This document shows positions 2,319 to 40,428 of a stretch of DNA of 63,022 nucleotides, one piece after another. The stretch is taken from positions 1 through 63,022 of the forward strand of contig JAUCBJ010000245.1 in the NCBI GenBank assembly GCA_032718475.1, read 5' to 3'. This DNA comes from Nemertoderma westbladi. Lineage: Eukaryota; Animalia; Xenacoelomorpha. Positions within the stretch are counted from its first letter, which is position 1. Every line of letters starts with the position of its first letter. The notes below the pieces were generated by a model that did not search any database, was not told the DNA's origin, and saw only the letters and a list, made by a program, of their open reading frames with translations. The translations under genes and the position numbers were made by a program.

Positions 2319-4139
2319 ATGGATAAAATAACAATATGTTGTTCATTCTGTCATATGAATGTAACTAGACATAATTATTTACGCCACCTACGCTCGCATT
2401 TTGAAAGTTATTCTTGTTTTAAGTGTCATGTCGTGACTTCATGCAGCGAAATTTGTAAACGACATGAATCAACTACTGGTTGTAAAGAAATGGAGTTCCG
2501 CACCTATCAATTGACTTGTTCTACCTGTAATAAAGAGTATACATATGAGAATTATATACGACACGATTGTCACTTGAAATGTTACTACACAAGAAAGCGT
2601 AAATTTCCGCAACATAAAAATATAATATCCAGAAAAAACTTAAGGGTGGCTCTTGGTACATGCGCAACAATTTTTACGCGGGAACAAGAAGCTCACGATA
2701 ATCGTCTTGAAATTTATGTCCACGACCTCCCAACTTCTAGAGATTATCCCGATGTAGAAACAGCATTAGCGCAAATTCGAGGTAATATTCTTCAGTTAAT
2801 ATTAGATAGATTGAAAGAAATGAATGTTCTTAGATTGTGGTTAGGTCTAAATGTATTAATGTACAGATCACATTTTTCAGAAGGTGAGCAATTGGAAACC
2901 TTTTATTTTAATTCTTCCGGTGGTGCTATTAATACTGTAGATTCATCGCAAAGTTTTGACACATGGTTTGAGTATGTGGTGGAAAATATATTACAAAAAA
3001 TAGCCATCTTTAACACACGTGGTTCGGGGTGGCGTATTAAATCTTTATTAAGGGTTGAAATTAAATTAGCTGAATCTAAGTGTAGGTCGTTACTATATAA
3101 GGGGCATGGATATATGGAATTACCTAAGGCTCTATCAGGTAAACAGTGTGTTATAAATGTACAATCGGCTGATAATGACTGTTTTAAATGGGCAATTATA
3201 TCTGCAAAATTTGGTAGCAAAGTGAAAAACAACAAACAGCGCACTTCGTCGTACAAAAATTATATGAGTCATTTCATTTTTGACAATGGGAAAAATGATT
3301 ATCCAACAGAGTGGCAGTTAGCGATTAAACTTTTTGAAAAACAAAATTCAAAATATATAATTAATTTACTATGTTGGAATAACGACAACAAACGCACCCC
3401 CGTATCTATATTAAGACAACCTCCGTTTAGTAAAATTACACCCGATAAACAGTTATTAAATATATTACTTGTAGTAAAAAATAACAATGTACCTAAACTG
3501 AATCATTATGTTTGCATAACTAACCTGAATCGATTGCTGAATACGAGAGCTCTTCATATCGGGAATAGGAAATATTGCGAAAGGTGTTTGGCTCATTTTT
3601 TTCGTGCGGAAGTTCTTCATCGACACCGTCTCGCCTGCTACCAAGGAAGAAGTCAGCGAGAGACACTACCTAATAAAAAAAGAACACACATTAGTTTTAC
3701 AAATTTAGATAGAACCTTAACCCCATTGTTTGTCACCTACTTTGATATAGAATGTATCTTACAACCGTCAGTTAATAATCAAATTATACAGGAGCATATA
3801 CCGTGTGCTGTGAGTTATTTAATTGTTCCCAATACTGAATTAATTGATGCTCCAAAATGTCATTTGAAAACATTCGTAAAGTCAAATAATAATAATAATA
3901 ATTGTATTCAAGATTTCTTAGATTCATTATATACTGATTTAACTGAATTATGTTGTTGGTCAGAAATATACACGCATAAAACTATTTCATTTACTAATAT
4001 TGATTTTGTAAATTTTGAACAAGCAAAATTTTGTTTTTATTGTAATGTTACTTTAAATAATAATGTAGGGAAAAACAGACATCATTCACATATTACAGGT
4101 AAATATATTGCGGCAGCCTGTAATAGTTGTAACCGAAGT
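2319..4139 (+). CDS. pPolB: Protein-primed family B DNA polymerase, N-terminal part (interrupted by the BEL insertion)
   Basis: N-terminal Zn-finger-like motifs, GSGW motif, DNDCFKWAI...HYVCI, CERC finger, ExoI YFDIEC, EndoVII-like CFYC...HHSHITGKYIAAACNSCN. Confidence 0.93.
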
Positions 4140-6004
4140 TATAGAATTATATTCTCTAAATGCCATGGATTTTCAAAATTTTATTTTATTTGAATTAACT
4201 TTGTTAAAAGATTACATTAAGTCCTCATTTGTATTTGCTATATCTATTTGTACGATGATTAGTCAAGTGGTTCAGTAGCTCAGTCGGTAGAGCGTTGGAA
4301 ATTATATGTAGTGTGTATTGAGTTCGAATCCTAGTAGGTGTGAATTATTTTTTGTGCAGAATTTCAACTCATTTAAATTGACCGCTACAAATTAATTGCA
4401 TTTGCTCGAAGTAAGGTTAACCAATGAGACTGTAGTTATTAGATTGTAACCAATGTCGTACGAGTTATATATTTGCTGGACCAATAGCTATCTTTAAAAA
4501 CCTGTTAGAACTCATAGAACAATCAAGAATTTTCTCGATTGATTGCGGCACAAATTTGGTATAAAAGGTGCGATTTTGTTCATTAGTTCACTACACACTT
4601 CAATCACTATTACTTCTGTTTATTGTATAATAGTTATTGTTTGATTTTGTAATAAAAGTTAGAAATACTTGTCACATCTGCCCTTTTCTATCTGTTTTAC
4701 TATGCTTCACCACGGTGAACCCAACTAAGGGACAGGATGGCTGGCTAAACATCGGGCCACAGCAATGAACGGGAACATCTAAGGAATGTACGCAGGAGAC
4801 AACCCGCAATATCACTCTTAGTTATTCGCCTGAAAGGATAGACAGCGTTCGATGCCTTGCTACCTAAGTATAAGACCAAAGATCGAAGGTAGAGGTAGTG
4901 ACACGCTGTACGCCTAAAATTACATCTAGGGACTGTACTGTTTTAATTCAGGAAAAAACCGCAGTAGACCTTCATATTCCTACGGGGGGAGAGCAGGCAG
5001 AGATACTAGTACGCAGATAGGACGTAGGCACACCGGTACAAGGCATACACATTGGTAGGGTGCAGCAAACTGTACGCCTAACTCTTGCTAAGTACAGGTG
5101 CGTCTGTGACTATTTGTAGTACAACGGTGTCCATTGCATTAGAACTTGTAGGCTAGGAGGGTTGCTGTGTTTCACCTGAATTAGGATTGTACCGTTCAGG
5201 CGGTAGGGCAGTTTACGACTAGGCGCAAATAAATTGAGGCTATTTAGGGATACTAACATCTACCGTGTCCCCGCCGACATCCTGATAGGAAGTTACCAAG
5301 CCCACCTAGGTAACCAAAATTCTAGATAGGACGCCAGGCTAGCTATTAGTAACCGTACGCCTACTGTAGTAAACTAACATATTTCTTCTTAGTATTAGGG
5401 ACCTGGTAAATTAAAATTGCCGAATTCTGGGCGTAGTATTAACCTTATGCCTGAATTTGAGTCCTGGAAATACGCAAGAGGGGAAGGAGCCTTATCATTC
5501 GTGAGTATTGGACCTACAAGTTACAAAATTAGAATATTCGTAAAATGCACACCGTACCCAGTAATTATATATATGAAGGAGCAAAACTGATTTTGACGGT
5601 TCAGAATTAACACACGCGCGTTAGAAATTATTTACACCTCAAAATATATAAAATTAACTTTTGTCCGTACTGCGCTTTGCCCGCTAGTTAGACATCTCCA
5701 GATCTCTGCACCTAGCTAGCGTCCTTTTCGCCCAACCATATAAATCACATCGCGGCAAAGTATACGAGCCCCTTAGTCCGTCAGTGAGTCAGCCTGATTT
5801 TAGGATTCGCTGCGCGGGATTTTGTTTTATCGAAGTTTGTCTGTTCGTAGACTGTTTTCTGCCTCACCGGTTATAAGGGACCGATACTGCAATATATATT
5901 CGCTTACTTGGAGTTTACTGTTTTGGTGAGAAGGTCGGATTTATGATTTGATTCACAAACTTTACAGTAAGATATTGCAGGTATTGTTACTGTCTCTTCG
6001 AATA
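4140..6004 (+). repeat. BEL 5' LTR (1865 bp)
   Basis: Direct repeat of 19476-21347. Contains CCAAT boxes (~4420-4485), TATAAAAG (~4560) and AATAAA (4651). Confidence 0.93.
4269..4342 (+). other. tRNA-derived Pol III promoter module (A and B boxes) inside the 5' LTR
   Basis: A box/D arm TAGCTCAGTCGGTAGAGC and B box/T loop GTTCGAATCC. Acceptor and anticodon arms are degenerate. A T-run follows. Confidence 0.7.
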
Positions 6005-7061
6005 GTAGGAATATGTTTTACTGAACTATGGTTCGGTAGGACTAAAGTTATTCGAAAAATTTGTATTTTGAGGTAAAAGTTTATATTTGATTAGCTAAGT
6101 GCTAATTTTTTGAAATAAAATTTGATTTGAACCGCGTGTAAAATATTTTGGAATTTAATACCGGTGTTTAAAAGGGTTTAAATACCATATTGTACCGGTA
6201 CAAAATTTTCGTAAAAAGTAAAACCAAACTCTTTTGTTTTTCAGGATTCAGAACTCATTTCTAGACTGTAACGGGAGCAAGACCGTGTTTAGCAAGTTTG
6301 GGAGATAGATAACTCAACAACCTTGGTTGGGAAAATCGCACTTCATCCACAACGCTGGAAACGGAAAGGTTCACGTCCGGTTTGTATCTGGGAATCTGTT
6401 TTTCTGGAGAATTATTGGAGTGGGTGAGTTCGAAAAGTTGCATAAATAAGTTAGGCATTACCGTATTAGTTAAAATTATTGTGGGTTCCACTGTCTCAAG
6501 TATTTATGCATTCCGTACGATTTCTTTGTTTATTGCTGAATTAGTCCGTAATTATTTGTATTTGATTTATATTTTGATAACGCATATCGTTATCCGATTT
6601 ATTTGTTATAAAATTGGCCGCTAGGCTAATTTTATTATATACTTATTCCGTGACATTTATTTGCTGTAAAATTGGCCGTTTAGGCTAATTTTATCCATCT
6701 GCTATAAAATCGGCCGGTAGGCTAATTTTATATGACTGTAATTAGTACCGTTTAAATATAAATACGGTAAATTTGATACTTTGACACTCATATTTTACTT
6801 GACTTACAACTACCGAAATGAGTGATAAACAAGACTATACGAAGAATACACCTACCGACTATTACTCATGTGACGCGGATAAGTCAGCAGCGGAAGAACT
6901 ACAAGGGAAGACTCGCGAGCCTACCGAACCTACACCGTGTGCGTCACCAGTACATCCAACGGGAGTACCGGATGCCGTAGTACGAGGCGAGGACCGAGGA
7001 CTGAGGACCGAGGACCGAGGACTTTCTAACTGTTCCGCAACCTAGATATAGGGAAACGGAC

Positions 7062-9975
7062 ATGGTAAGTTCAGTAGGAAGCCAGGAGAGTGTGGTTAGA
7101 AGCGTCGGAGGCTACATGGCGCATATTACCAGGAGTATTGGGGAAGGCCAACGCATATTAGGCGAGCTAACCGCTCCGATGTCTCGGTTTGAGTTCTACA
7201 CCCTCCAGGTTAGAGTACAAAGTAGAGTACATAAGTCCGTAGATAATCTAATTGGTCTACAAGATCTAGCTAGACAGAGACAGGACGTGGATACTCAACT
7301 TAGAATCCTCGAGAAACTAATGATCGCTAGAGAGAAACTGATTCAGTTTAAGTCGACGATTAGGCAGATACAACAGGAACAAGCGGACCAGTTGTTAGGT
7401 GAGTCAGTTTTGGACGAATTATTGCAGCCCGAGGAAGAACAGGAACTGTACCGACTGGATGGACAATTGAAACATCTGACGGACCACTTACGTATGTGCG
7501 GCGAAGACGTCGGCGATTTGGAAACCGTGCCGGAATATACGAGGGAAACTTCACCCGTACAAATCGAATCGGCACCGGGAATACTGGACCAAACGTTAGT
7601 GAGTATTCGCAGCGAAATTGGCGAGATAAGTATAGTGATGTCAGAAATTTCCAGACAGCAACAACAGCATTATAGACAACAACGGGAAGTTGAGGAACAA
7701 GCTCAACTGTTGACGGCACAAGCGGCGGTAGAAGAAGAAAAACTACGCGTTGCAAATGTTGCGAGAATCTCTCATCTGCAAGAACAAGCTGAGTTGGAAG
7801 CAGCCGAAATGGAAAGGCTAGAGTTGGACATTGCACAACAAGCGGCAGCGGCCGAGTTAGAGCGACAAGCGGCAGCAGCAGCGGCCGAGCTAGAGCGACA
7901 AAGGTTAGTTTCAGAAGCGAGAGCCGAGATGAAAAAACGGCAAATAAAGGCTCAATCAGCTATACGACAAGCGGAGTTCGAGGCGCAACAACAACAGACG
8001 GAACAACGCGAGAAAGAAGTTAAACTTCATTTCGAACTCGAGAAGAAGGCAAGAGAATTAGCCAACGCGAAGGAAGATCTGGATCTACAAGCCCGCGATC
8101 AATCGATGAGATCTCGAGATGGACACGATCTAGACCAGTTAGAGGTAAGGCACCGCCAAATTCAGGAACGAATGAAGGAAGGAAGTGTAGGGGCACCTGG
8201 GCGAGAAAGACAATTGGTTAAAGACTTATGTCAAAGATTCCCTCAAGTAACTCCTATGTTTGTACCGATTACGACTAAGGAACCTGTTTCGATTGCTGGT
8301 AGTAGTAATATTTCTCCTATCCATGGTGCGACGGAACACAGGTTTGTTATTCCGGACAAGTTTACACCGCCAAGAGCAACATCGTCGCCCATTCTGAAAG
8401 TCAAGGTAAGTAACCCACCGATTACAGATCGTAGTAGTTTGTTGACCGGACCTGCACTACTGACGACAAAACGGGTGAGTCCACCTTCGACACCAAAACT
8501 CGTTACGCACTACACGTACCCAATGACGTTTAGGCCTACAAAGCCTTTGGATTCAAACGCTGTCGTCCGACCACCGTTTAATCAGTTTACATCGCAATCT
8601 ACGACTTCGAGGAAGACTTATGAGCCTACCGAACAACGGAGACCAGTGGATACGCGACCGTTTAATCAGTTTACATCGCAATCTACGACTTCGAGGAAGA
8701 CTTGTGAGCCTACCGAACAACGGAGAACAGTGGACGATGTTCCAAAACGGAATGTTAGAATTCGAACGACACAACGGACGCGAGCACGTCAACCACCGTA
8801 TCCAGGTGATAGTAGTACTTCGAGTGAATCGGATTACCCGAAACGCGAGGTATTTAGAACAGGAGCGGCCGACGAATATAAACGTGAGCGTTCAGATAAC
8901 TCCTTTATCGATAATCCTCCACAAAATACACCAACACAGAAAGCGTTACAACCAACAGACGTGATTAGTACGCAACAATTCGCCGATCTAATGCGACCAG
9001 TTGTAGATAAGTTGGCCCAGATAGAGGAACGTTTAGAGGAAACTCAAACTGATAGTTCGCGAGGTAACGAGTTCGAACACTCTAGACACCCGAAGCAGCA
9101 AAGAAAACAACCCTCGAGAAACACCTCGTATCAAGGAAAAGCGCCAAGACGAGAGAACATCAATTCGATTGCCAACCAAGGACGCGAAACTTTGAACGTG
9201 GCCGAGGAGATAGCGAAATTCGCAGCGAGACAAGTTTTACCGGTGCAACAACCACCGAAGTTTTCAGGTAACTCGAAACATTGGCACACTTTTGTGGACT
9301 ACATCGAAACCCAAATAGCAGCGTGCGCCTTTACATCGAGGGAGAAATTCAACTACCTGCTACAAACGCTGACGGGAGAACCGAAACGTCTAGCGGAAAC
9401 CTTTGTCGGTGTACCAGATGCCTTCGAACTAGCGTATGATCGCTTAACTTCGATTTACGGAGGTACCGTGAGTATGGCTAAGTCAGTGATAGAAGAACTC
9501 TGTAAGGGGGGGGGCTATAACAAAACCCGTTGACTTACTGAAATTAGCTGACGAGATTAAGAACGCCATTACTACACTACGCTCGATTGGACAACTTGAC
9601 TACGCGAACACTCCGACAGTCCTATTAAAAATAATAGGAAGATTACACCTTCGACTTCGTCGGGAGTGGCGAAAGATAGAATATCAGCGAGAAGAGAGAG
9701 GCGGATTCTTGAAGTTGGAAGACGTCTACTTACTAATATCCAGAGAGGTAGTAGTCGAGACGCGTTCGAACTACACGGACCAACATATCGTGGCGGAAGG
9801 AATAACATTACCATCCTCGAACCGACAAAAACCCCAAACAACATCCACCAAGACGGTTACTTACGCCACATCGACCGACACCCGACAATTTTCAGACAGT
9901 AATAAGGTATCCGCACCAATTGGAACCAAACAGATCCGACAGCAACTGAGCACAGACTTTAACGGTTACCTAAAG
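7062..9975 (+). pseudogene. gag: BEL gag N-terminal/capsid region, frameshifted at G9 run 9506-9514 and interrupted at 9976
   Basis: Coiled-coil region followed by BEL gag motif PPKFSGNSKHWHTF...KFNYLLQTLTGEP...AYDRL. After the frameshift the reading continues into ORF 9709-9981. Confidence 0.88.
8574..8735 (+). repeat. 84-bp in-frame tandem duplication in gag
   Basis: PFNQFTSQSTTSRKT(Y/C)EPTEQRR occurs twice. Confidence 0.9.
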
Positions 9976-11150
9976 AGGTGAGGTCTCTATAGGGGTGACC
10001 GTAGCAGGCGGCGGCAGACTCGTGAGGGTCTGGGGGCACGTTAAATCAAGTCTAAGTGCAAGGGAGATACTGAAGGCCCTCGTGTCTAACGAACCATGAA
10101 TTGCCATGGTGCCGTGGTACCGTCTAGTCGGCCTGTTGCCGTACTGCCAGTCCTGTACACAGTAGGGGTGGTGGCGTGGCGTGATTTGTGGCTCATGTGG
10201 CGTGAACTATGTTTTGTATGTGGGCGATCAGTGGCAGTTTGCTTGGGGCTTGGATGGTTCCATTGACCGTCAGCTGTTCCGTTTTTTTGATACTATATGT
10301 TATTGTCTCCATGTTCAGCTGATTTGGTCTTTGGTGGCATTGGAATAAACCGTCGGGTCTTGAGTTTTCTGTTGCTGTGGGTACGTGAGTACACGTGATT
10401 GTATGTGTGGCCACTGCGAGTGGGTATGGGAACCCTTGCCAGTTGGACAAGACGCCGCTGGTATTAGTAGGACCATACTTTACTGCGCCCCAGCATACTT
10501 TGTGCACACAAAGTTATTTTACCCTGTCGGTAAAATAAAGTACTCTCGATTTGCCTCCGATCGATACAATTTGTCCCTTCTGATTTTGACCCCGATTTTG
10601 TCTTTACCCGATTATGTCCTCTGTGTGTGCATGGTATGTGTCAGATTTTGTGTTTACCGTAGTGTACTTGATTTCGTGAACATCTGTTGAGTACACATGT
10701 ACAGGACGGGTAAGTGGTTACTTGTTCCTAGCTTTCGAGCTAGTCAATATTGTTTGTGGAACTTACTTCCCCTCAATATTGCCGGCGAGGCAGGTGAAAA
10801 CGTGTCAAAATTCCAATGTTGGGTAGCGGAAGCCCGCTTGGGACAAGACCGTCGGTTAGGCCCAAGGGCGACCTTGGTGCTCGATCGCTATCGACTGGTC
10901 CACCTGCCGGTTGACTCTTTGTTATACTTTGAGTTGGCTCAATGTACAGTCAGGCCACAGTAAGTTGACAGTAGCCGCCCATCTGGCTACACGTTCGACG
11001 AGCTGTGCTGGTGTGATCGGGGGACCGAAAACAGAACTCGGGAAGCATCAGGCCACCCTCCGGCCCGGTCTGATAATAACATCTGTCGGACTGGCCCCAG
11101 GGGTGGTGGAAACACGTCCGCCTCATGGGTGCGCCTCGGGGAGGAGCCCA
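9976..11150. mobile_element. 1175-bp non-coding insertion in BEL gag, possibly a solo LTR
   Basis: 4-bp TSD AAAG at 9972-9975 and 11151-11154. Removal restores NGYLK-DESGQYCER in frame. Ends in CA and has internal AATAAA. Confidence 0.75.
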
Positions 11151-14100
11151 AAAGGACGAAAGCGGCCAATATTGTGAACGGCTAGGTAAACGACATACTA
11201 GCCATAAACTGAGAGGTTGTCGACTATTCCGCGAATTGAACTCAGAGGAACGACGACTACAAATACGGCCATTGGACTCTTGTTGGCGGTGTACGCTACA
11301 TGGACATGTCCGTAAAGACTGCCCAAATACAGACACTTGTCCTTCCTGTGGACGCAACCATGACGGTTTGCTCCACACAGACAGTCATACGCCGCCCAAA
11401 CGCTTCACCAGGGAACACCCGGAAGCGGCAGCAAGATGCAACACAGCATATAAGGGTCGAGAGTCGAAAACAACACCGACTTTCGTGACTCACATTAGAG
11501 ATTGGTTCTCGGAACAATCAGGATCGTCGGAGGAAGAGTCGGAAGACGACGACGTTTACTTTGATACTGGAGACGAACAACCATCGATTGCGCTTCTGAC
11601 GCCTGATCAATTAAAGGGGTTTAGTATAATTCCTGTCAAGATTACTGGCACCAAAGGAAGCAAGAGGATCTACGCTATCCTGGATTCAGCCTCATCTCAT
11701 AGCTACGTGGATGAGAAAGTAGCTGATGTTGTGACGGATCTCCGACAAGGTAAGAACGTCAGTTACACCGTAAGTAGTATGCATGGACAACGTGCAATAC
11801 CAGTGACACGAGTTAAGTTGAACTTAGACACTCTTCTTCCGAAATCGCAACATAGCGAAAAGGAGAGGTCTTTGTTACCCTTTAAAGATTTAACCTTTGC
11901 GGCCACAAAGGACTTTAGTAACCTACTAGGTCCTGTCCCAGAACAATCCTTGGAGGACCGTAAGTACTTCAGACACCTTGGTGTACCTGAATGTCCTGTC
12001 AACTATAGGTCGGTAGCAATGCTGATCGGGACAGATCAATTCAACCTACATCAAGTGTGGGAAACCAGACCATCGGCAGTCGTAGCGGGAAACGCATACG
12101 CCTGTAGAACGCCGATAGGGTGGTATACTCGAGCGCCTGTGCGCACACTGGATATAAGTGACGAGGAAGACGATATACAAAGTACATGTAGTTTATTAAC
12201 TACAACTTCGACTCATTCCTTTTCACACGACCGAGACTATACTACACAAGCGTCGACAAAACACGACAACATGACAAGTACGACGTGTGTAGCTAATACG
12301 ATAAGTCACAAGGAGCAGCTAATCCACCAGGTGAGTTTAGAACTTGGGAAGAAGACGAGTCAGCCAGAGATTCCATCGACGACAGATGATAACGCCGGAA
12401 GGCTTGCGAGTCTACCTCAACCAATAACCTCAACAATGCCTGTCGATATCGATGATGACGCGTTAAGAAATCATCAAGTGGAACAAGCTGCATTGGACAA
12501 AGAATTAACGGAGAAGACTATCAGGTGGTTAGAACAAGATACAGCTGAACCTGGTAGCTACGAACCATGTATGTCGGAACAAGAGAAACAATCTTTGAAG
12601 ATCATGGAAGATACTATCCGCCAGACGAAAGACGGACATTATGAGGTAGGGATGCTATGGCGTAACCAACGTCCTAAACTCATAAATAACTATCCGCTAG
12701 CCTTAAGACGTTTACACTCAATACGACAACGTCTATTAAAGGACGAGAAAGCCCATCTGCAGTATAATACTCAGATGGAGACGTATTTAACGAAGGGATA
12801 CGCTATCAGAATGACTAACCCAGAGATTGTGACTGACCAGACATACTACTTGCCACATCACTACGTGAGACCAGACAAACCAGACAAAGTACGTGTAGTC
12901 AATGACTGCGCGGCTCTGTTTGAGGGAATGTCCCTCAATAGTGAGTTAATGGATGGACCAAACATGAATAATTATCTTATGGGGGTGATTATGCGCTTCC
13001 GTCAGCGTCAAGTAGCCTTTACTTGTGACGTCGAAGCTATGTTTCACCAAGTGCGAGCGTTTTCGGTGCCAGGGACAGCCCAAACTGTACGATGTACGCC
13101 CTAAAGCAAGCCGCTAGGGATCAGAAACATATATATGACCCAGAGATAATCAAGATCGTAGAACGCGACTTTTACGTGGACGATGGTTTACAGAGTTGTG
13201 ACACAGTAGAACGTGCTATTACAGTAGCACATCAATTACGGGACTGCTTAGCGGGCGGAGGTTTTAACCTCACCAAATTCGCCTCAAACAGTGCCGAATT
13301 GGTAGACTCATTCGGAATGACTGAGCGTGGAGGTGGTGACATTGACCTAGAGTTCGAACCACTACCGACGACCAAGGTGTTGGGGCTCTTTTGGGACCCA
13401 AACACGGACAACTTTCGAGTGAAGGTGAGACTGGACACTCAAGAAAACATTCTGACAAAGAGATCCTGCTTGTCAAAATTGAGTCGATTATTCGATCCAT
13501 TAGGATTCATCAGCCCAATAATACTGCAAGCCAGAATTTATATGCGCAGCATTTGGAAGGATGGACTGACATGGGACGAGCCGATCTCATCAGAACAAGT
13601 GGACTTATGGAAAACCTGGGAGGCAGAATTATCTTCAATAGAGGATTATTCCATACCCAGAGTGTACTTTCCATTACAAACGACATTTCCTGACAACTTG
13701 GAATTACATTGTTTCTCCGACGCCAGTGACAACGGCTTTGGTGTGGCAGCGTATTTACGCAGACAAGTAGACTCAGACGAGTTTGATGTTTCGCTCATTA
13801 CTTCTAAGGCTAAAACCATGCCTACTAAGTATATGACGACACCACGCGCTGAGCTACAAGCCGCAACCCTGTCAACCACAATCGTGAACCTTATACAGAC
13901 GGAACTACAGTCAAGTTTACAGATATTTTATTGGACTGACGCGACGTTGGTTTTATTTTACATAAACAACGACACACTTGAATTCAAGACATTCGTAGCT
14001 AACCGTCGCGCAGAAATTCTAGACCGTTCAATAAAGGAAGATTGGCGACATTGTCCCGGACCACAAAACCCAGCCGATATTGCGTCGCGAGGAATGATGC

Positions 14101-16512
14101 CTGAGGAATTCTGTAAACCGGAGAACAAAGAATTTTGGCAACACGGACCACAATTCTTGCAAAGATCAGTACAACATTGGCCGCCACTATACGACAACAA
14201 GTCTAACACTATCCCTAAAGACGCGGAAATTAAAAAACCAAAGAAAGGGAAAGCAAAGAAAAGGACGGCGGCTAAACTCAAGAAAAAACCGAAGGCGAAA
14301 TGGAAAGATATAACTTCAAAGGTCAAGAGCGGAAGACTTGCGAGCCTTTCTACACCAGACATATCGCCAGACGCGTTACTAGACGGTCAACCAGACGTTT
14401 TGCCAGACATATCACAAAATGTTCTACCAGACACTAGTAACATATTGACAAATAGTAAAGCCGCAGTTTCTCTATTGGAGCGGCCTTCTATAGACAAACA
14501 TCCAGACACGTTACCAGACGTATCGCCAGACGCGTTACTAGACGGTCAACCAGACGTTTTGCCAGACATGTCACTAGATATTTCGCCGGATGTTCCGCGA
14601 AACATTTTACCAGACATGTCACAAAATGTTCTACCAGACACTAGTAACATATTGACAAATAGTAAAGCCGCAGTTTCCCTATTGGAGCGGCCTTGTATTG
14701 ACAAACTACCAAATTTGACACACTTGAGTAACCATAAGCACAGTGAAACCTCATGTATTACAGATGTGGGTAGTACCTACGTAAATGTAAATACAGGTGT
14801 TACTTTGCGCTCAAGAGACATACCAAACTTGCAACCTATGGTGAGACCTGGGATTAATATCGGCAGAAAAATAAGTTTACCGAAACCCAGTGACCCCATA
14901 GAGTTCAAACCACCATTAACGATCGACTTACAAAGTACTGACAACCAGGGTAAGAAAACAAAGAAGGACAAATTACTTGTAGACCCGGACGGATCAACAG
15001 TCAACAAGGGAATACCTACCGGCGGACCCGTGGGCCCTTCTAGTAAATCAAAACCTTCCAAATTCTCCATTGACTTACCTGATGACGTCACAAATACTTA
15101 CGTCGACCGTATTGTAAACTTAACAGATTCTTGGACAAACGCTTGCCGAAAATTAGCGTGGATTGTACGTTTTGTACAATACGTTAAAGGCAAACGCGAC
15201 TTTACACGTCGACTTACATTGACTGAGATTGACAGGTGTGAAATTAAATTAATTCGCCATTACCAACTGCGATATTTCGCGCGCGAATTCACATCTATAA
15301 ATCAAGGTCAACCAATCAAGTCGTCACCAATATTGAGTTGGAGTCCGATAATTTATAATGGCTTAATTTGTCATAAATCTCGGCTTGAAAACATTGACTT
15401 TAACACAAACTTTAGATACCCAATAATAATACCGCAGCATCACGAATTACAACGTGCAATGATACTGGACGCACATTTACATCTGAAACACGCTGGAAGA
15501 CACCACTGTCTTTCCTACTTACGTACAAGATTTGTATTAATTAGACCCAGTAAAGCGTTAAGTTCAGTGACACGTACGTGTATTATTTGTAAAAAGGTAC
15601 ATTCTAGAATAGGTACCCAAGAAATGAGTGAACTTCCACAAGCACGACTTCAAGCATTCAGACCACCTTTTACAGAGACTGGAATTGATTGCTTTGGTCC
15701 CATACATACGAAACGTGGACGTATACTAGTAAAACGCTGGGGACTGATTTTCACATGTATGTCCAGTAGGGCAGTTCATATTGAACGTGTGATGGATCTT
15801 TCCACCAACGCGTTTATACTAGCATTGCGGCGATTTATCGCTAGACGCGGACTAGTGAAATGCTTGTACTCAGACCAAGGGACAAACTTTGTTGGTGCCC
15901 GAAATGAAATTGCTAGAGCCTTTAAGAAATTAGATCATGATCAAATCTCAAACGAACTACGTCCTTACAAGATTGTTTGGAAGTTTAATCCTCCAGATAG
16001 TCCATGGAGAGGCGGAGTCTGGGAGAGATTGATTAGATCTATAAAAACAGCCATGGCGAAAGTAATTCCAGTAAACCACATTTTGACAGACGACCAACTG
16101 ACTGACGACCAACCAACTGACTACTTTGACGCCTATTTCTTTTCCAACAGAAAGCGACAGCTACGGTAGAAAAGCGTGGAAAATCACGCAACTACTAGCT
16201 AACAAATTCTGGGAAATATGGCAAAACCATTATTTGCCCTCTATTTCTGCCAGAACAAACTGTTACAATAACACCCGCGCATTAAAGCCGGGAGATCACG
16301 TGCTGTTAGCAGAAGTGAATCTAAAAAGACGCTTCTGGATAACAGGTGTAATTTTAGCCACACATCCATCTATGGATGGAGTGACAAGAACTGTGACGGT
16401 ACGGACAATTGACGGTCGTACAGTAGACAGACCGACTCAACGTCTCGTACTTCTTGAAGAGACTCGTAACGAGTCTGGAGACTACAAATCTCCAACTAAT
16501 ATTAGTAAATAA
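11151..16512 (+). pseudogene. pol: BEL gag Zn knuckles plus pol (PR, RT, RNase H, integrase), with deletions and frameshifts
   Basis: CWRCTLHGHVRKDC, CPSCGRNH, protease ILDSAS, RT YLPHH...DVEAMFHQV and FYVDD, RNase H HCFSDAS, integrase HHCC, GIDCFGP, SDQGTNF, GGVWERL. Frameshifts near 13060 and 16120. Confidence 0.93.
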
Positions 16513-17067
16513 TTAGGAGTTTACAAATAGATTTCCACGTACCTGTACACCATAGTAAGGACAGCGGTAGAATTCCATTGTCTTTATATGTGAACATTGA
16601 GGGTAGTACCCTTATGTGTCACATAGGAGCGGGATTTGTAGGTATAAGAAATGGAATTCTACTTGGAACTCACAATATTGAGACATTTTCGAAATTTTAG
16701 ACAATCCATTTGGATTTGAAAAATTTTTAAAATTTTCTCCAGTGAATAGATTTCAGGGTACAGTCGGGTGGAACTTAAAATTAGAGAAACAAGAGAGGAA
16801 GACTTGCGAGCCTTTCTTAAAATTTTAATTTAAATTTTACACGGTCTTGTTTCAATAAGTTACGTCAATAAATAGACTTCCCTATATTTATTACTAATTC
16901 TTGACTGCTTATTTTCTGATAATAGTTTGGGATCAAAAAGTGAGTATTTTTGACTCACAGCCAGTTTAGCCCAAATTCGTTTTTATTTCGGCAAAAAATT
17001 TTAGATAAGAAGCAGCGTGTCATTAAAGAAACCCTAGATCTTAGGCTATGGGTAGGAGGTTAGAGCG

Positions 17068-18072
17068 TTGTCGAGCCAAAAGGGCAGACGAAAACTCTCA
17101 CGTCTCCTCACAACTAACTACAAACTCTGTTGTATTCCCTCTAGTAGTAATGATTATGTAACTACACCTCTAATTATGGAGAAGGAGATACATGGAGAGC
17201 CGAGATGGGGATATGATATCCAAGAGGAAGCAGCAGCGCCATTCGAAAGATTTGGAGCCAAAGAATACACTATATTTGGTATAAAAGAATTATCAGAAAG
17301 TACTGCGAAACTCGCGAGAACTAAATATGACTCGAATGTATTAAAGAGAAGGCAAAACGCATTAAATGAAAGAATCGAAAGTTTGCGCAAAACCTTCAAT
17401 GAACTTTACCCGTATGACGCTTTGTGTGATACGGGAGACATTAGCGAAGACCCCGATACTGAAATTAGTGGTTTGTATCATACCATGCAATACCTAAAGG
17501 CGCACGAACCTATGCCTGCGGTACGAGATGAATTCGATGGAATGCACCTTTACAGACGAACTCGAGGGGACGATAGAGAAACAAAGGAAGCATTTTCAGT
17601 TTATAAACTTTATTATCAATGCGGTTCTTGTATGCGCGAACAACGAAATGCGATTCCAATGCGTTTGAATAAGGAAAATCCCGAACCGATATTGGCGAGG
17701 TGTTCGAACCATCAACAACTACGCTACCAGGAAGGAGGGTATCCTTTATCAAATCCATATCATTCGTTTGCTATGACTGGACCAAAGGCGGGAGAAACTG
17801 TCGTTTACCCACCTAAGGTTGTTGAACCCGATGCATTTGAACTTACGCTGGACGAGGCGAATCAGTCAACCCGCGAAAAGAAAGAAGCTCTTAGCCTATA
17901 CAGAGCCTACAAGGCTTTCGAGAAAGGTGAGATGGAAGAATGGGGCGGAAGACTCGCGAGCCTACCTTACCATTGGACGTCACACGATCAAACTTCAGCT
18001 AAGGAGATGACACCGGAAATTTTCGAAAGTATAAACTTTGCCCAAAATGTTCAATCGTATCACATATGGTGA
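17068..18072 (+). CDS. Extra ORF downstream of the BEL integrase, unknown function
   Basis: 334-codon ORF (likely ATG ~17197) in the env position. CGSC...RCSNH is a possible metal-binding site. No hydrophobic TM segment seen. Confidence 0.6.
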   Translation: MSSQKGRRKLSRLLTTNYKLCCIPSSSNDYVTTPLIMEKEIHGEPRWGYDIQEEAAAPFERFGAKEYTIFGIKELSESTAKLARTKYDSNVLKRRQNALNERIESLRKTFNELYPYDALCDTGDISEDPDTEISGLYHTMQYLKAHEPMPAVRDEFDGMHLYRRTRGDDRETKEAFSVYKLYYQCGSCMREQRNAIPMRLNKENPEPILARCSNHQQLRYQEGGYPLSNPYHSFAMTGPKAGETVVYPPKVVEPDAFELTLDEANQSTREKKEALSLYRAYKAFEKGEMEEWGGRLASLPYHWTSHDQTSAKEMTPEIFESINFAQNVQSYHIW

Positions 18073-18688
18073 ATTTGACCGTTTTCGAACAGAAAAGCGA
18101 AATAAAGGAGCTTGGTTAACCGTCGCATGGGCGTACCGAGCCGCGTTCTATCATAGGCGTATACGAGCGAGCGTATTCGAGGAAGAGGAGATCCTAGAGG
18201 CGACCGACATACCAGCCACTCCGGTTGCGCCGTCTCCACGTCACCCTCGGGAGGACGGACAGGGTAGGATCATAAGGGTCCAGAAAGTGAGCCAACAATT
18301 AAAGAAGTCTATTAATATAGAAGAACGCAAGGGAGTTGAGCCGACCATTCGAATTACTCGGGATACGGTATCGCTTCCTAGAGAACCAACAGGAGGATCG
18401 GGACATACACCAGCTGATCAAAAGGGGGCGCAAGCTACTCTTGGGTCTGCGTCGTCCGCTTCCCGCGCGTTCCCAGACGTTTTACCAACTGTAGTGACAA
18501 CTGATCGGTCACGAGGAATCGGTCGAGGTTTCGGGATACCAAATAGACGAATTTGTGAGGAAATGGTCGCACCGTCTCCCAACGTCCAAACGAAACCAGT
18601 GACTCGCCCCACGAGTCCCATATCGCGAGCAAAGTCACCTGTGCGCAGTTTTCGAGGACACGGCAGGGCTCGATCCACTAAGCGATAA
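18038..18688 (+). CDS. Second extra ORF, or frameshifted continuation, basic and Pro/Arg-rich
   Basis: 216 codons, overlapping the end of the previous ORF in the +1 frame. Confidence 0.5.
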   Translation: MPKMFNRITYGEFDRFRTEKRNKGAWLTVAWAYRAAFYHRRIRASVFEEEEILEATDIPATPVAPSPRHPREDGQGRIIRVQKVSQQLKKSINIEERKGVEPTIRITRDTVSLPREPTGGSGHTPADQKGAQATLGSASSASRAFPDVLPTVVTTDRSRGIGRGFGIPNRRICEEMVAPSPNVQTKPVTRPTSPISRAKSPVRSFRGHGRARSTKR

Positions 18689-19475
18689 AAGGGAGGGCAA
18701 GGGTGGACGGAAGACTCGTGAGCCTTTCTTGTGAATTTGTGATTTATTTGAATTATATGTTTTATATTTAGTAAGTTTTGTATTCTGGAAGATTCATATT
18801 TAGTAAGATTTATATTTAGAAGAAAGTTATATTTTGCAAGATTTATATTTTATATTTGTGATTATTCCAAACTTATGCAATTTATATTGTTCCGAATACT
18901 ATGCAATTTATATCTTATAAGCAGTATTTGTATTTACAGTGAAATAGAAAGTAAGAGTAGATGGAAGACTCGTGGGCCTTTCTTATAGTTTCATTTGTAA
19001 AGTGTTATATTTTGTATTTAGAAAGTTTTATAGTTAGAAAGTTTTGTACTTAGAAAGACTCATATTTGTAATTATTCCGAACTTATGCAATCTACATTTA
19101 GGCACGAAAGTATTTGTAATTATTTGAATTTATGCAATATTTGAGATGCAAGAGTAGATGGAAGACTCGCGAGCCTTTCTTATGATTTTCATTTATTTGT
19201 ATTTGTAATTGTTTGAATTTATGCAATATTGAGATGCAATAGATTTATATTGGTGAATTTAATTTAGATGTATATTGTACTTACTTAGTAAAGCCTTAAA
19301 TATGTAAAGTTTGAATTTGTAATTATTTTGTATCGAATCATTATGTAGAAAGGAAGTATTGCTTGAAATTTAATTTGTAAATATGTAAGTACACCCTAAG
19401 CATTCTATAATTTGATTGATTATTGGTGAAAACCGTATATTTTATGCACGATAATATCCTGTTTTCATGGAGCGG

Positions 19476-21347
19476 TATAGAATTATATTCTCTAAATGCC
19501 GTGGATTTTCAAAATTTTATTTTATTCGAATTAACTTTGTTAAAAGATTACATTAAGTCCTCATTTGTATTTGCTATATCTATTTGTACGATGATTAGTC
19601 AAGTGGTTCAGTAGCTCAGTCGGTAGAGCGTTGGAAATTATATGTAGTGTATATTGAGTTCGAATCCTAGTAGGTGCGAATTATTTTTTGTGCAGAATTT
19701 CAACTCATTTAAATTGACCGCTACAAATTAATTGCATTTGCTCGAAGTAAGGTTAACCAATGAGACTGTAGTTATTAGATTGTAACCAATGTCGTACGAG
19801 TTATATATTTGCTGGACCAATAGCTATCTTTAAAAACCTGTTAGAACTCATAGAACAATCGAGAATTTTCTCGATTGATTGCAGCACAAATTTGGTATAA
19901 AAGGTGCGATTTCGTTCATTAGTTCACTACACACTTCAATCACTATTACTTCTGTTTATTGTATAATAGTTATTGTTTGATTTTGTAATAAAAGTTAGAA
20001 ATACTTGTCACATCTGCCCTTTTCTATCTGTTTTACTATGCTTCACCACGGTGAACCCAACTAAGGGACAGGATGGCTGGCTAAACATCGGGCCACAGCA
20101 ATGAACGGGAACATCTAAGGAATGTAGGCAGGAGACAACCCGCAATATCACTCTTAGTTATTCGCCCATCGCCTGAAAGGTTAGACAGCGTTCGATGCCT
20201 TGCTACCTAAGTATAAGACCAAAGATCGAAGGTAGAGGTAGTGACACGCTGTACGCCTAAAATTACATCTAGAGACTGTACTGTTTTAATTCAGGAAAAA
20301 ACCGCAGTAGACCTTCATATTCCTACGGGGGGAGAGCAGGCAGAGATACTAGTACGCAGATAGGACGTAGGCACACCGGTACAAGGCATACACATTGGTA
20401 GGGTGCAGCAAACTGTACGCCTAACTCTTGCTAAGTACAGGTGCGTCTGTGACTATTTGTAGTACAACGGTGTCCATTGCATTAGAACTTGTAGGCTAGG
20501 AGGGTTGCTGTGTTTCACCTGAATTAGGATTGTACCGTTCAGGCGGTAGAGCAGTTTACGACTAGGCGCAAATAAATTGAGGCTATTTAGGGATACTAAC
20601 ATCTACCGTGTCCCCGCCGACATCCTGATAGGAAGTTACCAAGCCCACCTAGGTAACCAAAATTCTAGATAGGACACCAGGCTAGCTATTAGTAACCGTA
20701 CGCCTACTGTAGTAAACTAACACATTTCTTCTTAGTATTAGGGACCTGGTAAATTAAAATTGCCGAATTCTGGGCGTAGTATTAACCTTATGCCTGAATT
20801 TGAGTCCTGGAAATACGCAAGAGGGGAAGGAGCCTTATCATTCGTGAGTATTGGACCTACAAGTTACAAAATTAGAATATTCGTAAAATGCACACCGTAC
20901 CCAGTAATTATATATATGAAGGAGCAAAACTGATCTTGACGGTTCAGAATTAACACACGCGCGTTAGAAATTATTTACACCTCAAAATATATAAAATTAA
21001 CTTTTGTCTGTACTGCGCTTTGCCCGCTAGTTAGACATCTCCAGATCTCTGCACCTAGCTAGCGTCCTTTTCGCCCAACCATATAAATCACACCGCGGCA
21101 AAGTATACGAGCCCCTTAGTCCGTCAGTGAGTCAGCCTGATTTTAGGATTCGCTGCGCGGGATTTTGTTTTATCGAAGTTTGTCTGTTCGTAGACTGTTT
21201 TCTGCCTCACCGGTTATAAGGGACCGATACTGCAATATATATTCGCTTACTTGGAGTTTACTGTTTTGGTGAGAAGGTCGGATTTATGATTTGATTCACA
21301 AACTTTACAGTAAGATATTGCAGGTATTGTTACTGTCTCTTCGAATA
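19476..21347 (+). repeat. BEL 3' LTR (1872 bp)
   Basis: Copy of 4140-6004 with a 7-bp insertion and scattered substitutions. Preceded by short purine-rich GGAGCGG. Confidence 0.93.
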
Positions 21348-21352
21348 GAAGT

Positions 21353-23596
21353 TTATCATTGAAACGATACCTGTATGTACTTTGCGGACATAATTCCAAC
21401 AATTACGATATACATTGTATATTACAAAGCGGATTTAGAGATAAGAAATATACAGATTGGGATATAAAGGTTATACCGAGAAATACAGAACGATATATTT
21501 CACTGAGTGCATTTATCCCAATTAAAAACACTTCTAAGAAAATTGAGTTACGTTTCTTAGACACATATCAATTTTTAAGCTTTTCTTTAAGTAATTTAGT
21601 TGAGTGTTCAACAAAGGATGTAGCGAGTCATGATATAAGCTCAATTTTACCTATTACTCTACAAGAAATGAAATATTTTTATCCAAACTTGAATAACTCA
21701 ACAATTAAATGGAAAGGAGTATTTCCATACGAGTACTTGACAGATATAAATAAATTTAATGATACTGGTTTGCCGTCTATAAATAATTTTTTTAGTAACT
21801 TAAGTCAAAAAACATGCACAATTGAAGATTATAGGTTTGCGGGAATATCATGGGTAGAATTCGACTGTGTGAATCTCAAAGATTATCTTTTAGCCTATTT
21901 AAAACTCGATGTTTGTTTGCTTGCTGATATATTTGAGAATTTTAGGAATGTTTGTAAACAAAATTACGATTTAGAAGCGGTTTTTTACTGTAGTATCGCG
22001 TCATTTACCTATGATTGCGCGCTAAAATATAATAAATGTAAAATAGAATTAATAAAGGATTATCAGACATATAGAGATTTTGAAAAATCAATTAGGGGTG
22101 GTGTTTCATTTTGTCGAAAGCATTATATAGAATCAAATATACCAGGTACAAGTACATATGATTCTACTAAGGAAGAATGCCATATTTTTAATATTGATTT
22201 CAACTCTTTATATTCTGGGAATTTAAGTAAAAAACTACCCACCTCACAATTCAAAGAAGTAAGTATTAAACATTTAGAGAATGCAATTCCAGAAAAACTA
22301 ATCGAGTACTTGGTAGATTTAGACATTGATGGATCTACTGGATATTTTTTAATATGTGATTTAAATTATCCCAAGGCTATTCACGATCAAACATTACAAT
22401 TACCGTTAGCCCCTGAGCATTTAAGTATAAATGAATCAATGCTTTCGCCTTATATGATGGAACAATTTAATAACTTGTCAATACAAAGAGGTACCTCCCG
22501 TAAATATAGAATGTCTATACCAAAACTCATGCTGACGCAATTTGATAAAGAGTTTTATCATTTACATTTGAAACTGTTAAAATTTTATATAAAACATGGA
22601 TTAATTGTTACTAAACTACATAAATTATATTCTTTTCAACAAGAATTTGTATTTAAAAATTACATCGATTTTAATATTAATCAAAGGCGACTGGCAAAAA
22701 GTTATATTGAAACAGCTGTCGCGAAATTGCTCAATAATTCGTTGTTTGGCAAATCAATAGAAAAGATAAGAGATCGATGTAACTTTCGTATCGCAAATAG
22801 CAACGATAAATGCGATCAATTGGTAAATCGTATTAATCATGAACAATTTATAATATACAATAATACACTATCGGGACATTTATTAGTGAAAGACTCTGTA
22901 ACTCTCGATAAGCCTATATTTATTGGTAGCACTGTGTTGGACTTGGCTAAATTGGATATGTATGAGCTGTATTACAATAAATTGCTACCTATTGAGAAAG
23001 AATTAAACTGCCGTATTGAAATTGCTGCATCAGACACTGACTCGTTGATAGGTTGTTATTATAATACATCGCAGAATAATTTTTTAAAAGCATTAATTAA
23101 AAATAATATTTTAGATACATCCAATTACCCTAAGGATCACCCACTCTACAGCGATAAAAATAAATCCAGACTCTATTACTGTAAAGACGAACTAGCCTCG
23201 CGTGAAATTAAACAAGCAGTATTTTTAAGACCAAAATTATATTCAATTTTGGAATGGAATAATAAAAATATTCGTAGAGCAAAAGGTATTACAAGAGCTG
23301 TTGTGGAAACGAATATTACACATGAAGAATATTTAAAAGCATATAACTCAAATGAAGAAATAAAAAAAATCATACACAGATTTCAATCTAAATTACATCG
23401 TATTTATACCTTAAAGCAAAATAAATTTGCACTCAGTAGCTTTGATGATAAACTTTATTGGGTTAATAAAAATCAATCACTTCCTTGGGGGCACTATAAA
23501 ACAAACCTCAAAAAACCTATAAAAATATCAAATATACCAATTTATGAAGAACCAAAAGACGATGGTGTTGATGATGAATTATCAAATAGTAAATAA
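21353..23596 (+). CDS. pPolB: pPolB C-terminal part (exonuclease II/III and polymerase motifs)
   Basis: HNSNNYD, FLDTYQF, KGVFPYEY, YLKLDV, motif A IDFNSLY, motif B KLLNNSLFGK, motif C SDTDS, AKGI. Joins 2319-4139 in frame to give ~1354 aa. Confidence 0.96.
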   Translation, partial: LSLKRYLYVLCGHNSNNYDIHCILQSGFRDKKYTDWDIKVIPRNTERYISLSAFIPIKNTSKKIELRFLDTYQFLSFSLSNLVECSTKDVASHDISSILPITLQEMKYFYPNLNNSTIKWKGVFPYEYLTDINKFNDTGLPSINNFFSNLSQKTCTIEDYRFAGISWVEFDCVNLKDYLLAYLKLDVCLLADIFENFRNVCKQNYDLEAVFYCSIASFTYDCALKYNKCKIELIKDYQTYRDFEKSIRGGVSFCRKHYIESNIPGTSTYDSTKEECHIFNIDFNSLYSGNLSKKLPTSQFKEVSIKHLENAIPEKLIEYLVDLDIDGSTGYFLICDLNYPKAIHDQTLQLPLAPEHLSINESMLSPYMMEQFNNLSIQRGTSRKYRMSIPKLMLTQFDKEFYHLHLKLLKFYIKHGLIVTKLHKLYSFQQEFVFKNYIDFNINQRRLAKSYIETAVAKLLNNSLFGKSIEKIRDRCNFRIANSNDKCDQLVNRINHEQFIIYNNTLSGHLLVKDSVTLDKPIFIGSTVLDLAKLDMYELYYNKLLPIEKELNCRIEIAASDTDSLIGCYYNTSQNNFLKALIKNNILDTSNYPKDHPLYSDKNKSRLYYCKDELASREIKQAVFLRPKLYSILEWNNKNIRRAKGITRAVVETNITHEEYLKAYNSNEEIKKIIHRFQSKLHRIYTLKQNKFALSSFDDKLYWVNKNQSLPWGHYKTNLKKPIKISNIPIYEEPKDDGVDDELSNSK

Positions 23597-24125
23597 AAAT
23601 ATAAGTTGTAAGCAGATTATTTATGGACTTAATTTAAAAGAATTAAAAAATCAATTGAATGGTAAAATTGTACTCAAACCTAATCAGTTTATATATAAGG
23701 TATTTGGTGCAACCATATTAATGTTTACAAATGGACGAATAACAATTCTCGGTAGAAAATATAATTTTAATAAAGTGAAAAAACATATATTAGAAAAAAC
23801 AAACATTAATTTGATTTTTAAATCAATCAATTTGTGTACTTATATTTTTAGTATCGATACTGTAATTTATAGGTTACTTATAAACAATATCGGGTTTTAT
23901 GTTATATTTGATAATGTTAAACTAGAAATTTCATACGATCCTGAAATATTCAATAACTGTAAAGTCAGAATAAATAATATTGTTGTTGTTTGCTGTTTCT
24001 ACACTGGTAAATGTACATTAATGTGTTCCCCGTTTAAATTTCATATATATTATCCTATATTCAACAAACTGGTTAATAATTTATTATTGTTTGGTGTGGG
24101 GGTTTTTGATGTAAAATATAATTAG
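23544..24125 (+). CDS. TATA-binding protein (TBP)-like protein
   Basis: Two-repeat TBP pattern. Repeat 1: QIVNKNIS...LNLKEL...ATILMFTNGRITILG. Repeat 2: SINLCTY...SYDPEIF...VCCFYTGKCTL. Confidence 0.72.
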   Translation: MKNQKTMVLMMNYQIVNKNISCKQIIYGLNLKELKNQLNGKIVLKPNQFIYKVFGATILMFTNGRITILGRKYNFNKVKKHILEKTNINLIFKSINLCTYIFSIDTVIYRLLINNIGFYVIFDNVKLEISYDPEIFNNCKVRINNIVVVCCFYTGKCTLMCSPFKFHIYYPIFNKLVNNLLLFGVGVFDVKYN

Positions 24126-34341: not shown

Positions 34342-34559
34342 TGTGGCAGTATAATCGTACTGCTAATGTCTCATCATAAAGTATACCGGATATGCAAAGG
34401 TATGCAATAAAAATGTATAATATGAAGGCAGTAGTTAGCCTACACCAGTACTGCAGTAAGGAAGTTAATGCAGTGAATAGTCAAGTGAAAACTCTCTAAC
34501 ACTTGTCCGAGTATATGGCAAACTCAGTAGGTCCTGAGTATGTAAGTGGCACCGCCACA
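34342..34559 (-). repeat. Gypsy 3' LTR
   Basis: Identical to 38546-38763. A G-rich PPT lies just upstream on the minus strand. Confidence 0.96.
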
Positions 34560-34583
34560 TGACCCCCCCAGACTCGGAAAGAG

Positions 34584-37500: not shown

Positions 37501-37742
37501 GTCCCGAAACGCAGCGGAATTGTGCGTTGTCCGTATGTCCTGATCGAGGTGCTATTGGCGGCTACGAGGGGCGGACCGCTTCCGCCCGCGCGTGCCTCGT
37601 GCGTCATAGCCGGGATGACGCTGACCTCGGCCCCGGTGTCCACCAGAAACCGTTGCCCGGACAGTCGGTCCAGGACAAATAGCAGCAGATCGGGGTGGCC
37701 GGCCGTAGCAGCTGCTACTGACGGCCGGCCGGGGCGTTTCCC
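34584..37742 (-). CDS. pol: Gypsy pol (PR, RT, RNase H, integrase), expressed by -1 frameshift
   Basis: [62 protein letters not shown]. Confidence 0.97.
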
Positions 37743-38455: not shown

Positions 38456-38530
38456 GGTGAAGGCGTTGGAGCGGGGCGCGAATAACGGGAGGGCTGTTGG
38501 TTGCAGTTCGACTCAACAAATCGTGCTGAG

Positions 38531-38544
38531 CAGTCGGGTCACCA
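38531..38544 (-). promoter_or_regulatory. Primer-binding site, tRNA-Trp-like
   Basis: TGGTGACCCGAC directly after the 5' LTR resembles the complement of the tRNA-Trp 3' end. Confidence 0.7.
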
Positions 38545-38545
38545 A

Positions 38546-38763
38546 TGTGGCAGTATAATCGTACTGCTAATGTCTCATCATAAAGTATACCGGATATGCA
38601 AAGGTATGCAATAAAAATGTATAATATGAAGGCAGTAGTTAGCCTACACCAGTACTGCAGTAAGGAAGTTAATGCAGTGAATAGTCAAGTGAAAACTCTC
38701 TAACACTTGTCCGAGTATATGGCAAACTCAGTAGGTCCTGAGTATGTAAGTGGCACCGCCACA
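38546..38763 (-). repeat. Gypsy 5' LTR
   Basis: Identical to 34342-34559. Confidence 0.96.
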
Positions 38764-40333: not shown

Positions 40334-40428
40334 GGTTAGGCTACGCGTAGGTGAATACGCAACGATTGGTTGAAGGCAAGGCAACGACGCGAATCAATAC
40401 TGTTGGTGACAGATGGTCATTAAACACT
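40334..40428 (-). repeat. Polinton right terminal inverted repeat
   Basis: Reverse complement of 1-94. Confidence 0.95.

Follow-up and report, generated by a model that had tools for sequence, protein, structure and literature searches.

The window analysed here, the whole stretch of DNA under study, comprises 63,022 nucleotides (positions 1 to 63,022 of the forward strand) of contig JAUCBJ010000245.1 from Nemertoderma westbladi (assembly GCA_032718475.1). Its plus strand contains a BEL/Pao long terminal repeat (LTR) retrotransposon of 17,208 bp (4140..21347), bounded by a 5-bp target duplication, GAAGT (4135-4139 and 21348-21352). The internal region of the element carries ten near-identical copies of a 20-bp self-complementary word, all on the sense strand, where 100 dinucleotide shuffles gave a chance expectation of 0.00. 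This 20-mer is a genuine signal, repeated and sharply bounded, and it is specific to the family of this unusual BEL/Pao element.

The 5' LTR (4140..6004, 1,865 bp) and the 3' LTR (19476..21347, 1,872 bp) are 98.7% identical. Between them, likewise on the plus strand, lie an upstream open reading frame (ORF) of 75 codons (6818-7045); gag (7062..9533), an 823-aa piece with a long family-specific N-terminus and a terminal DUF1759 capsid domain, which continues in another frame at 9493-9981; a zinc-knuckle/protease/reverse transcriptase (RT)/RNase H/integrase region (11080..16512) in three frame pieces (11080-13104, 13029-16169 and 16102-16512); and two extra ORFs, ORF3 (17176..18072, 298 aa) and ORF4 (18047..18688, 213 aa), the latter in another frame and overlapping the end of ORF3. 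The assignment to BEL/Pao was made by domains (Peptidase_A17, E 8e-43; DUF5641, E 2e-20; DUF1759, E 7e-8). There are 741 pol homologues at E<=1e-30, and the 120 listed all have PF05380 and are 31-41% identical. This copy of the element is damaged, with frame changes near 7005-7045 and 9500-9530 and a broken RT and integrase. Contigs of sequencing runs from three studies of one organism together cover the element from end to end, mostly at 90-99% identity; it is therefore a genuine multi-copy family, and an assembly artefact is ruled out.

Copy 1 of the 20-mer (6906..6925, ACC type) lies in the upstream ORF. Copies 2 (8611..8630) and 3 (8695..8714) occupy the two units of an 84-bp tandem duplication in gag. 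Copy 4 (12397..12416), in which G6-U15 replaces A6.C15, falls in an enlarged protease-RT linker, and copy 5 (14331..14350, TTC type) at the start of an enlarged RNase H-integrase linker. Copy 6 (16797..16816) is non-coding, in the interval between pol and ORF3, and copy 7 (17947..17966) is within ORF3, with the ORF4 start codon 100 nt downstream. Copies 8 (18709..18728), 9 (18963..18982, with U8-G13) and 10 (19160..19179, about 300 nt 5' of the 3' LTR) belong to a 3' non-coding repeat array. Copy spacing is about 0.2-2.5 kb, with one 3.7-kb gap that covers an inserted segment described below. An initial annotation, made from the sequence alone, had listed eight of these copies, correctly placed and oriented, and had missed the two in gag; its consensus describes most copies, and those at 12397, 18709 and 18963 depart from it at two, one and two positions, respectively.

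Twelve of the 20 positions are invariant among the ten copies, which score 29.7-36.1 bits with a position weight matrix built from them; the best site outside the element scores 5.8 bits. With up to five mismatches allowed, both LTRs and the remaining 46 kb of the window are free of copies, in line with the earlier impression that the word is private to the element. The 20-mer was not found in viral contigs, among which the pol query had no relative either, and a metagenome motif scan returned 26 loci with one exact match each, none resembling the element, which we take as chance. A search of Rfam with 4100-19500 gave no match at gathering score and two sub-threshold matches to small nucleolar RNAs (E 1.4 and 3.8).

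Translated copies give GRLASL at 12397, 14331 and 17947 and KTxEPTE at 6906 (KTREPTE), 8611 (KTYEPT) and 8695 (KTCEPT); the remaining four are untranslated. The claim that copies inside ORFs always encode GRLASL thus holds for pol and ORF3, but not for the two gag copies, which read KT(Y/C)EPTE. As had been noted, the copy in the upstream ORF is read in a different frame from GRLASL, and this frame is common to the gag copies. Codon usage for GRLASL is much more restricted than the peptide requires (about 0.001 per copy, the classes having been chosen post hoc). When six spaced copies are compared, identity is 1.0 at 13 of the 20 positions and close to background (0.1-0.4) directly 5' of the 20-mer and from a few bases 3' of it. 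Because of these sharp palindrome edges, the two reading frames, the four non-coding copies and the narrow codon choice, we regard the 20-mer as conserved as nucleotides and not as peptide, which bears out the nucleotide-level selection proposed at the outset.

The pol copies sit at interdomain linkers, as the initial annotation had it: protease-RT for 12397 and RNase H-integrase for 14331. The coding copies among the ten fall in stretches to which few, if any, of 120 BEL homologues align. The distance from protease to RT is 384 aa, compared with 244-298 in homologues (n=45; 86 aa over the longest), and that from RNase H to integrase is 529 aa, compared with 236-296 (n=100; 233 aa over the longest). 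Right after the 14331 copy, at 14354-14706, the RNase H-integrase linker contains internal duplications of 57 and 105 nt. That both pol copies are located at domain junctions in the same frame would suit a protease cleavage peptide. This idea is largely refuted: GRLASL is found in one homologue out of 120, where it forms part of an unrelated conserved helix elsewhere, and seven of the ten copies do not encode it. Internal plus-strand priming would agree with the purine-rich 15 nt 5' of the copies (0.71 vs about 0.53; p 1.5e-4, the copies not being independent), but the 20-mer does not duplicate the element's own polypurine tract. As to recombination sites, there is no motif-to-motif joint among the joints listed (15 of 81 and 15 of 21). 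We give very little credence to priming, recombination or cleavage as the role of the copies.

On the sense RNA, the predicted fold of the 20-mer is an eight-pair stem with a purine-pyrimidine wobble at positions 6/15 (mostly A.C), a variable pair at 3/18 and a four-letter YRYG loop. A.C and G-U wobbles are alike in geometry. If columns 3/18 and 6/15 are set aside as always asymmetric, 80 of 80 paired cells are intact on the plus strand, as opposed to 66 of 80 on the minus strand. The five to six independent changes all preserve a G-U pair (one-sided, post hoc p 0.015-0.03; CpG weighting had no effect). In the loop, position 12 is a G throughout (11 of 11 sequences) and positions 9-11 vary; six of the ten main loops fit YNMG as defined in the available text of PMC10639051.

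Two diverged candidates extend this pattern. The first (15021..15040), near the end of the RNase H-integrase linker and read GGPVGP, was picked up by a sequence-only matrix at 13.0 bits and is four changes away from the nearest copy. Its pairs 4/17 and 8/13 are altered on both sides, with A6.C15 and the YRYG centre retained. A score at this level alone was reached in 0.054 of shuffled elements, and together with all six intact stem pairs in 0.0025; a similar site with an intact stem appeared in 0.003 of synonymous resamplings (all with thresholds chosen after the candidate had been seen). The second and weaker candidate (15495..15514), from a covariance model (E 0.28), keeps the motif arms intact around a different loop; this perfect 8-bp hairpin is predicted to form in context. 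It lies in conserved integrase zinc-finger codons (GRHHCLS), the G-R of which is also found in 38 of 80 homologues. Among the twelve sequences, pair 8/13 occurs in four forms (UA, UG, CG, AU) and 6/15 in three (A.C, GU, AU), and the covariation score with both candidates added was reached in 2 of 500 shuffles. At 10013 there is a half copy that scores 9.9 bits and has a hairpin of its own (-10.5 kcal/mol); we did not assign it.

The initial annotation had offered a repeated RNA hairpin or a DNA site. The pairing pattern and the 15021 candidate tilt the evidence to paired RNA, and the balance of our judgement is just on the side of the 20-mer being an RNA stem-loop tag on the sense RNA, read by the Gag nucleocapsid or by an ORF3/ORF4 product. 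The mechanism is plausible but rests on one element copy and two diverged candidates.

A number of observations weigh against a stem-loop. In isolation the 20-mer hairpin has little stability (-0.4 to -4.9 kcal/mol); when 40 or 100 nt of flank are included, its mean pair probability never exceeds 0.39 and is usually below 0.05; local z-scores are unremarkable save at 16797 (-2.9); the stem is not extended by the flanks (mean z 0.07); and the 15021 hairpin is absent from the in-context prediction. Four of the ten loops violate YNMG. The stem letters are nearly invariant, which suits a reading by sequence as well as by structure, and three of the variants are at CpG bases of a methylated element. 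Because the covariation of the ten main copies was matched by the shuffle control in 238 of 500 cases, the case rests on the two candidates, and 15495 was picked using the structure model at codons that favour such letters (null 0.035). Sister copies, suggested earlier as a check on constraint, add little: in a 571-nt 3' stretch, none of the 12 listed substitutions and none of the 7 listed indels lie within the 60 motif bases. This absence of changes among 19 agrees with constraint and is not significant in an underpowered comparison (p 0.26, and about 0.12 for the 19 together). Comparison of the whole element with sister contigs was uninformative, there being no motif change in 40 listed of 1,380 substitutions with about 0.5 expected.

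The flanks of the copies tell of their spread. Sequence is common beyond the 20-mer in 8611/8695 (40+20 nt), 18709/19160 (12+10) and 14331/16797 (7+1), and sister copies have gained and lost units in the 3' repeat array. We take the group-wise common flanks to show spread by local duplication and short-tract copying. The 20-mer might then be a functionless by-product of RT template switching and tandem duplication that survives only in dispensable sequence, and the confinement of the ten copies to linkers and non-coding DNA, as well as a sister-copy test below significance, would agree with this. Neutral tracts, however, should be ragged and age with their flanks, whereas the groups with unrelated flanks end at the same two edges and agree in as many as 20 of 20 letters (6906 vs 17947). 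The changes are also biased toward keeping pairs, and no comparable dispersed multi-copy word is among those listed (14 or fewer per region) for the Polinton or the gypsy element of the window. A by-product without function seems to us quite improbable.

Half of the substitutions between the two LTRs (8 of 16) are CpG transitions, though CpG bases make up only 138 of 1,865 (p 7e-6). Because of this over-representation, we conclude from the sequence that the host evidently methylates the element. This bears on a second alternative, in which the 20-mer is a double-stranded DNA site made of two half-sites of 10 bp and bound by a dimeric protein, in the simplest case ORF3, acting as a VANC-like shield from methylation silencing. 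An inverted repeat with sharp edges and no hairpin predicted in context is what such a site would look like, and the 20-mer core contains two CpGs. There has been tandem amplification, with a unit number of the 3' array that varies among sister copies, as in VANC targets (PMC5735166, available text), and ORF3 is an orphan without a membrane segment and with a possible zinc site. On the other hand, the LTR promoter has no copy, and the changes are biased by strand. The two-sided changes at 15021 would harm both half-sites yet preserve the RNA stem, and the changes tolerated at positions 2, 3, 8 and 9 lack a mirror image in the other half-site. For ORF3 there was no assignable DNA-binding fold, and VANC motifs, in the available text of PMC5735166, are 8-9 bp words that are non-coding and absent from the exons tested. 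We consider a DNA site unlikely, while keeping it in view as the chief rival of the RNA tag. We also considered words of host transcription factors (ETS GGAA, the BANP motif's core CTCGCGAG, p53) and dropped them, as the varying positions of the 20-mer break them.

Being self-complementary, the same word can also pair between copies as a 20-bp duplex. The duplexes of 12397 with other copies are the strongest (-20 to -32 kcal/mol; remaining pairs, -8 to -24). The minimum-energy fold of 12250-14500 contains a 17-bp helix between 12397 and 14331 across the RT-RNase H region, and 18963 pairs with 19160 elsewhere. The copies could thus pair mutually without any reader, zipping genome dimers or looping the RNA, with 12397 as the high-affinity partner of the other nine; palindromes are known to drive Ty1 and retroviral dimers (PMC6844567; PMC12789967). 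Yet nine of the ten copies retain two A.C mismatches per duplex, which a single transition would abolish, 15021 and 15495 are no longer complementary to the other copies and have kept their own stems, and the dimer signals known elsewhere are few in number and lie close to the 5' end. Mutual pairing is in our estimation a slim prospect.

Returning to the stem-loop tag, we propose that an element-encoded RNA-binding protein recognises and stabilises the 20-mer stem-loop at ten to twelve sites. Such multivalent binding would compact the unspliced RNA of about 15 kb and escort it, for packaging or nuclear export. The copies may have spread via short-tract copying in reverse transcription and via tandem duplication, and persisted where the protein tolerates them. 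The five copies 3' of pol would also be present on any ORF3/4 messenger, a poor fit to selective packaging that counts against this part of the proposal; therefore, export fits better. [quoted passage not shown]

The most likely putative reader is the Gag nucleocapsid, followed by an ORF3/ORF4 product. ORF3 has a possible C-C-C-H zinc site (C149-C152-C176-H179). It has no relative among 570 word-sharing candidates of a 5.8-billion set or in 1.84 billion representatives, no match in Pfam, PHROG, PDB sequences or metagenome contigs, and no Atlas match above 0.78; a single-sequence model, with a predicted local distance difference test score (pLDDT) of 37, gave no assignable fold. ORF4 is basic (39 K+R vs 21 D+E of 213 residues) with an Arg/Ser/Pro-rich tail, and has no relative among 300 candidates and no Atlas match. 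A reader of the Rev type would be expected to have an arginine-rich RNA-binding part and an export signal; ORF4 has the basic composition and the Arg/Ser-rich tail, and no homologue of it turned up in these searches. A bolder version of the proposal, which we consider doubtful, is a private RNA-recognition system in which the hairpin tag is read by the orphan ORF3/ORF4 product for Rev-like escort along the whole 15-kb RNA, the tag possibly having been born in integrase zinc-finger codons and copied to about a dozen places.

Other features of the element deserve mention. The LTR termini at 4140 and 21347 are TAT...ATA, compared with the usual TG...CA. The post-LTR sequence begins GTAGG and lacks the initial TGG of a tRNA site; the 18-nt tRNA-Arg/tRNA-Gly primer site of BEL/Pao is not seen, as judged without a tRNA library. 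At the primer-site position (6005..6015, plus strand), 11 nt are exactly complementary to LTR positions 4973-4983 (chance, about 5e-4). This agrees with the available description of self-primers (at least 10 bp, 0-5 bp from the LTR; PMC6317226); the pairing forms in the fold of 4973-6120 and is absent in the folds of 4586-6120 and 4973-7000. Directly 3' of the primer site, at 6015-6042, is a 12-bp hairpin (-13.7 kcal/mol) with a UAUG loop, of the same YRYG class as the 20-mer. An 11-nt complementarity that links 6030 to sequence flanking copy 6906 was discarded, since 38 pairs of this kind occur in the element and the two that touch a motif are about the number expected.

The segment at 9966-11212, in which the half copy lies, is 1.25 kb long, G+T-rich and splits gag; it has no match elsewhere in the window and is absent from one contig of run X4, which has 50 other letters at the join. 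A tRNA-like unit at 4267-4352, also present in the 3' LTR, has A-box and B-box words and a T run, and was not called by ARAGORN. The summed contig depth of run X4 is about 10x higher at 17964-19475 and 4140-4651 than over ORF3 or the rest of the LTR. This deep block, made up of ORF4, the 3' array and the LTR's first 500 nt, hints at a sister family that has only that block in common with the element, contig depth being a poor measure.

The element is inserted into a long ORF of a Polinton/Maverick that also bears adenovirus-type protease, integrase and ATPase genes. We take the interrupted ORF to be the polymerase from its motifs; Pfam gave no match. The Polinton extends over about 1-40400, with a 74-nt inverted repeat (1-74 / 40355-40428) and an ORF resembling TATA-binding protein (23544-24125) besides the protease, integrase and ATPase, and it also hosts a gypsy element (34342-38763) with identical LTRs of 218 nt. 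A long, A-rich tandem array with a 38-bp period occupies about 53400-63022.

In its LTRs with a 5-bp target duplication, DUF1759 gag, pol domain order (protease, RT, RNase H, integrase), Peptidase_A17, DUF5641 and short polypurine tract, the element resembles Belpaoviridae as profiled by the ICTV, the international committee for virus taxonomy (PMC8742986). It differs in size (17.2 kb vs 4.2-10 kb), in LTR length (1.87 kb vs 0.2-1.2 kb), in lacking the 18-nt tRNA primer site, and in having the repeated 20-mer and, in place of the env-like third gene that may be present, two extra ORFs. Neither of these is env-like: the maximum 19-residue hydropathy is 0.29 for ORF3 and 0.68 for ORF4, and there is no membrane segment. 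Our literature search found no such repeat described in BEL/Pao, with subscription papers mostly outside its scope and the slash spelling possibly missed. The same profile calls BEL/Pao replication poorly understood, and little is known of how RNA is selected, exported or packaged by these elements. A 20-nt unit with clear limits and natural variants offers a directly testable handle on this question.

In the VANC/VANDAL system of Arabidopsis, too, the transposon has an orphan accessory gene and a private motif that has multiplied, with tandem amplification, in a host that methylates (PMC5735166, PMC6719617, available text). VANDAL is a Mutator DNA transposon, and its motifs are 8-9 bp, not palindromic and non-coding; the 20-mer, by contrast, is 20 bp long, enters coding sequence, avoids the LTRs and varies like paired RNA. 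Because ORF3 has no VANC homology and the transposon class is different, the element is not a member of the VANC system, although the methylating host is shared.

Self-complementary words on the genomic RNA of LTR elements are also known from Ty1 (PAL1/PAL2) and from retroviral dimer initiation sites (PMC6844567; PMC12789967). Those sites, as far as described there, are two or three in number, short and in the 5' region, whereas here at least ten near-identical 20-mers are distributed along the internal region. The Rev response element (RRE) of HIV with Rev, the Rex response element (RexRE) of HTLV with Rex, and the MPMV CTE are cis-acting stems on unspliced RNA, the CTE near the 3' end (PMC12789967), and as in those export systems there are accessory ORFs 3' of pol that could encode a putative reader. 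The RRE and CTE are single elements of at least 200 nt, where here a 20-nt unit is scattered over 12 kb, and ORF3 and ORF4 show no similarity to any known protein. If the bolder version of our proposal is correct, the hairpin and ORF3/ORF4 would form a regulatory pair in the style of complex retroviruses, in a group for which the searches made found none described.

The 20-mer would work most like the dispersed packaging signals of MS2, parechovirus and hepatitis B virus, which are many small stem-loops spread genome-wide, also in coding sequence, with a common protein-recognition motif (PMC6281560). The available text of that source describes none for LTR retrotransposons. The spread of the copies and their strand fit multiple stem-loops on the genomic strand, and the pairing pattern fits a stem, but the in-context folding energy does not. 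Those signals are degenerate, with few loop letters in common; the 20-mer has conserved arms, and 12 of its 20 letters are the same in all ten copies. Either a distributed RNA tag of this kind or an animal counterpart of VANC anti-silencing would, as far as the literature search showed, be new for BEL/Pao.

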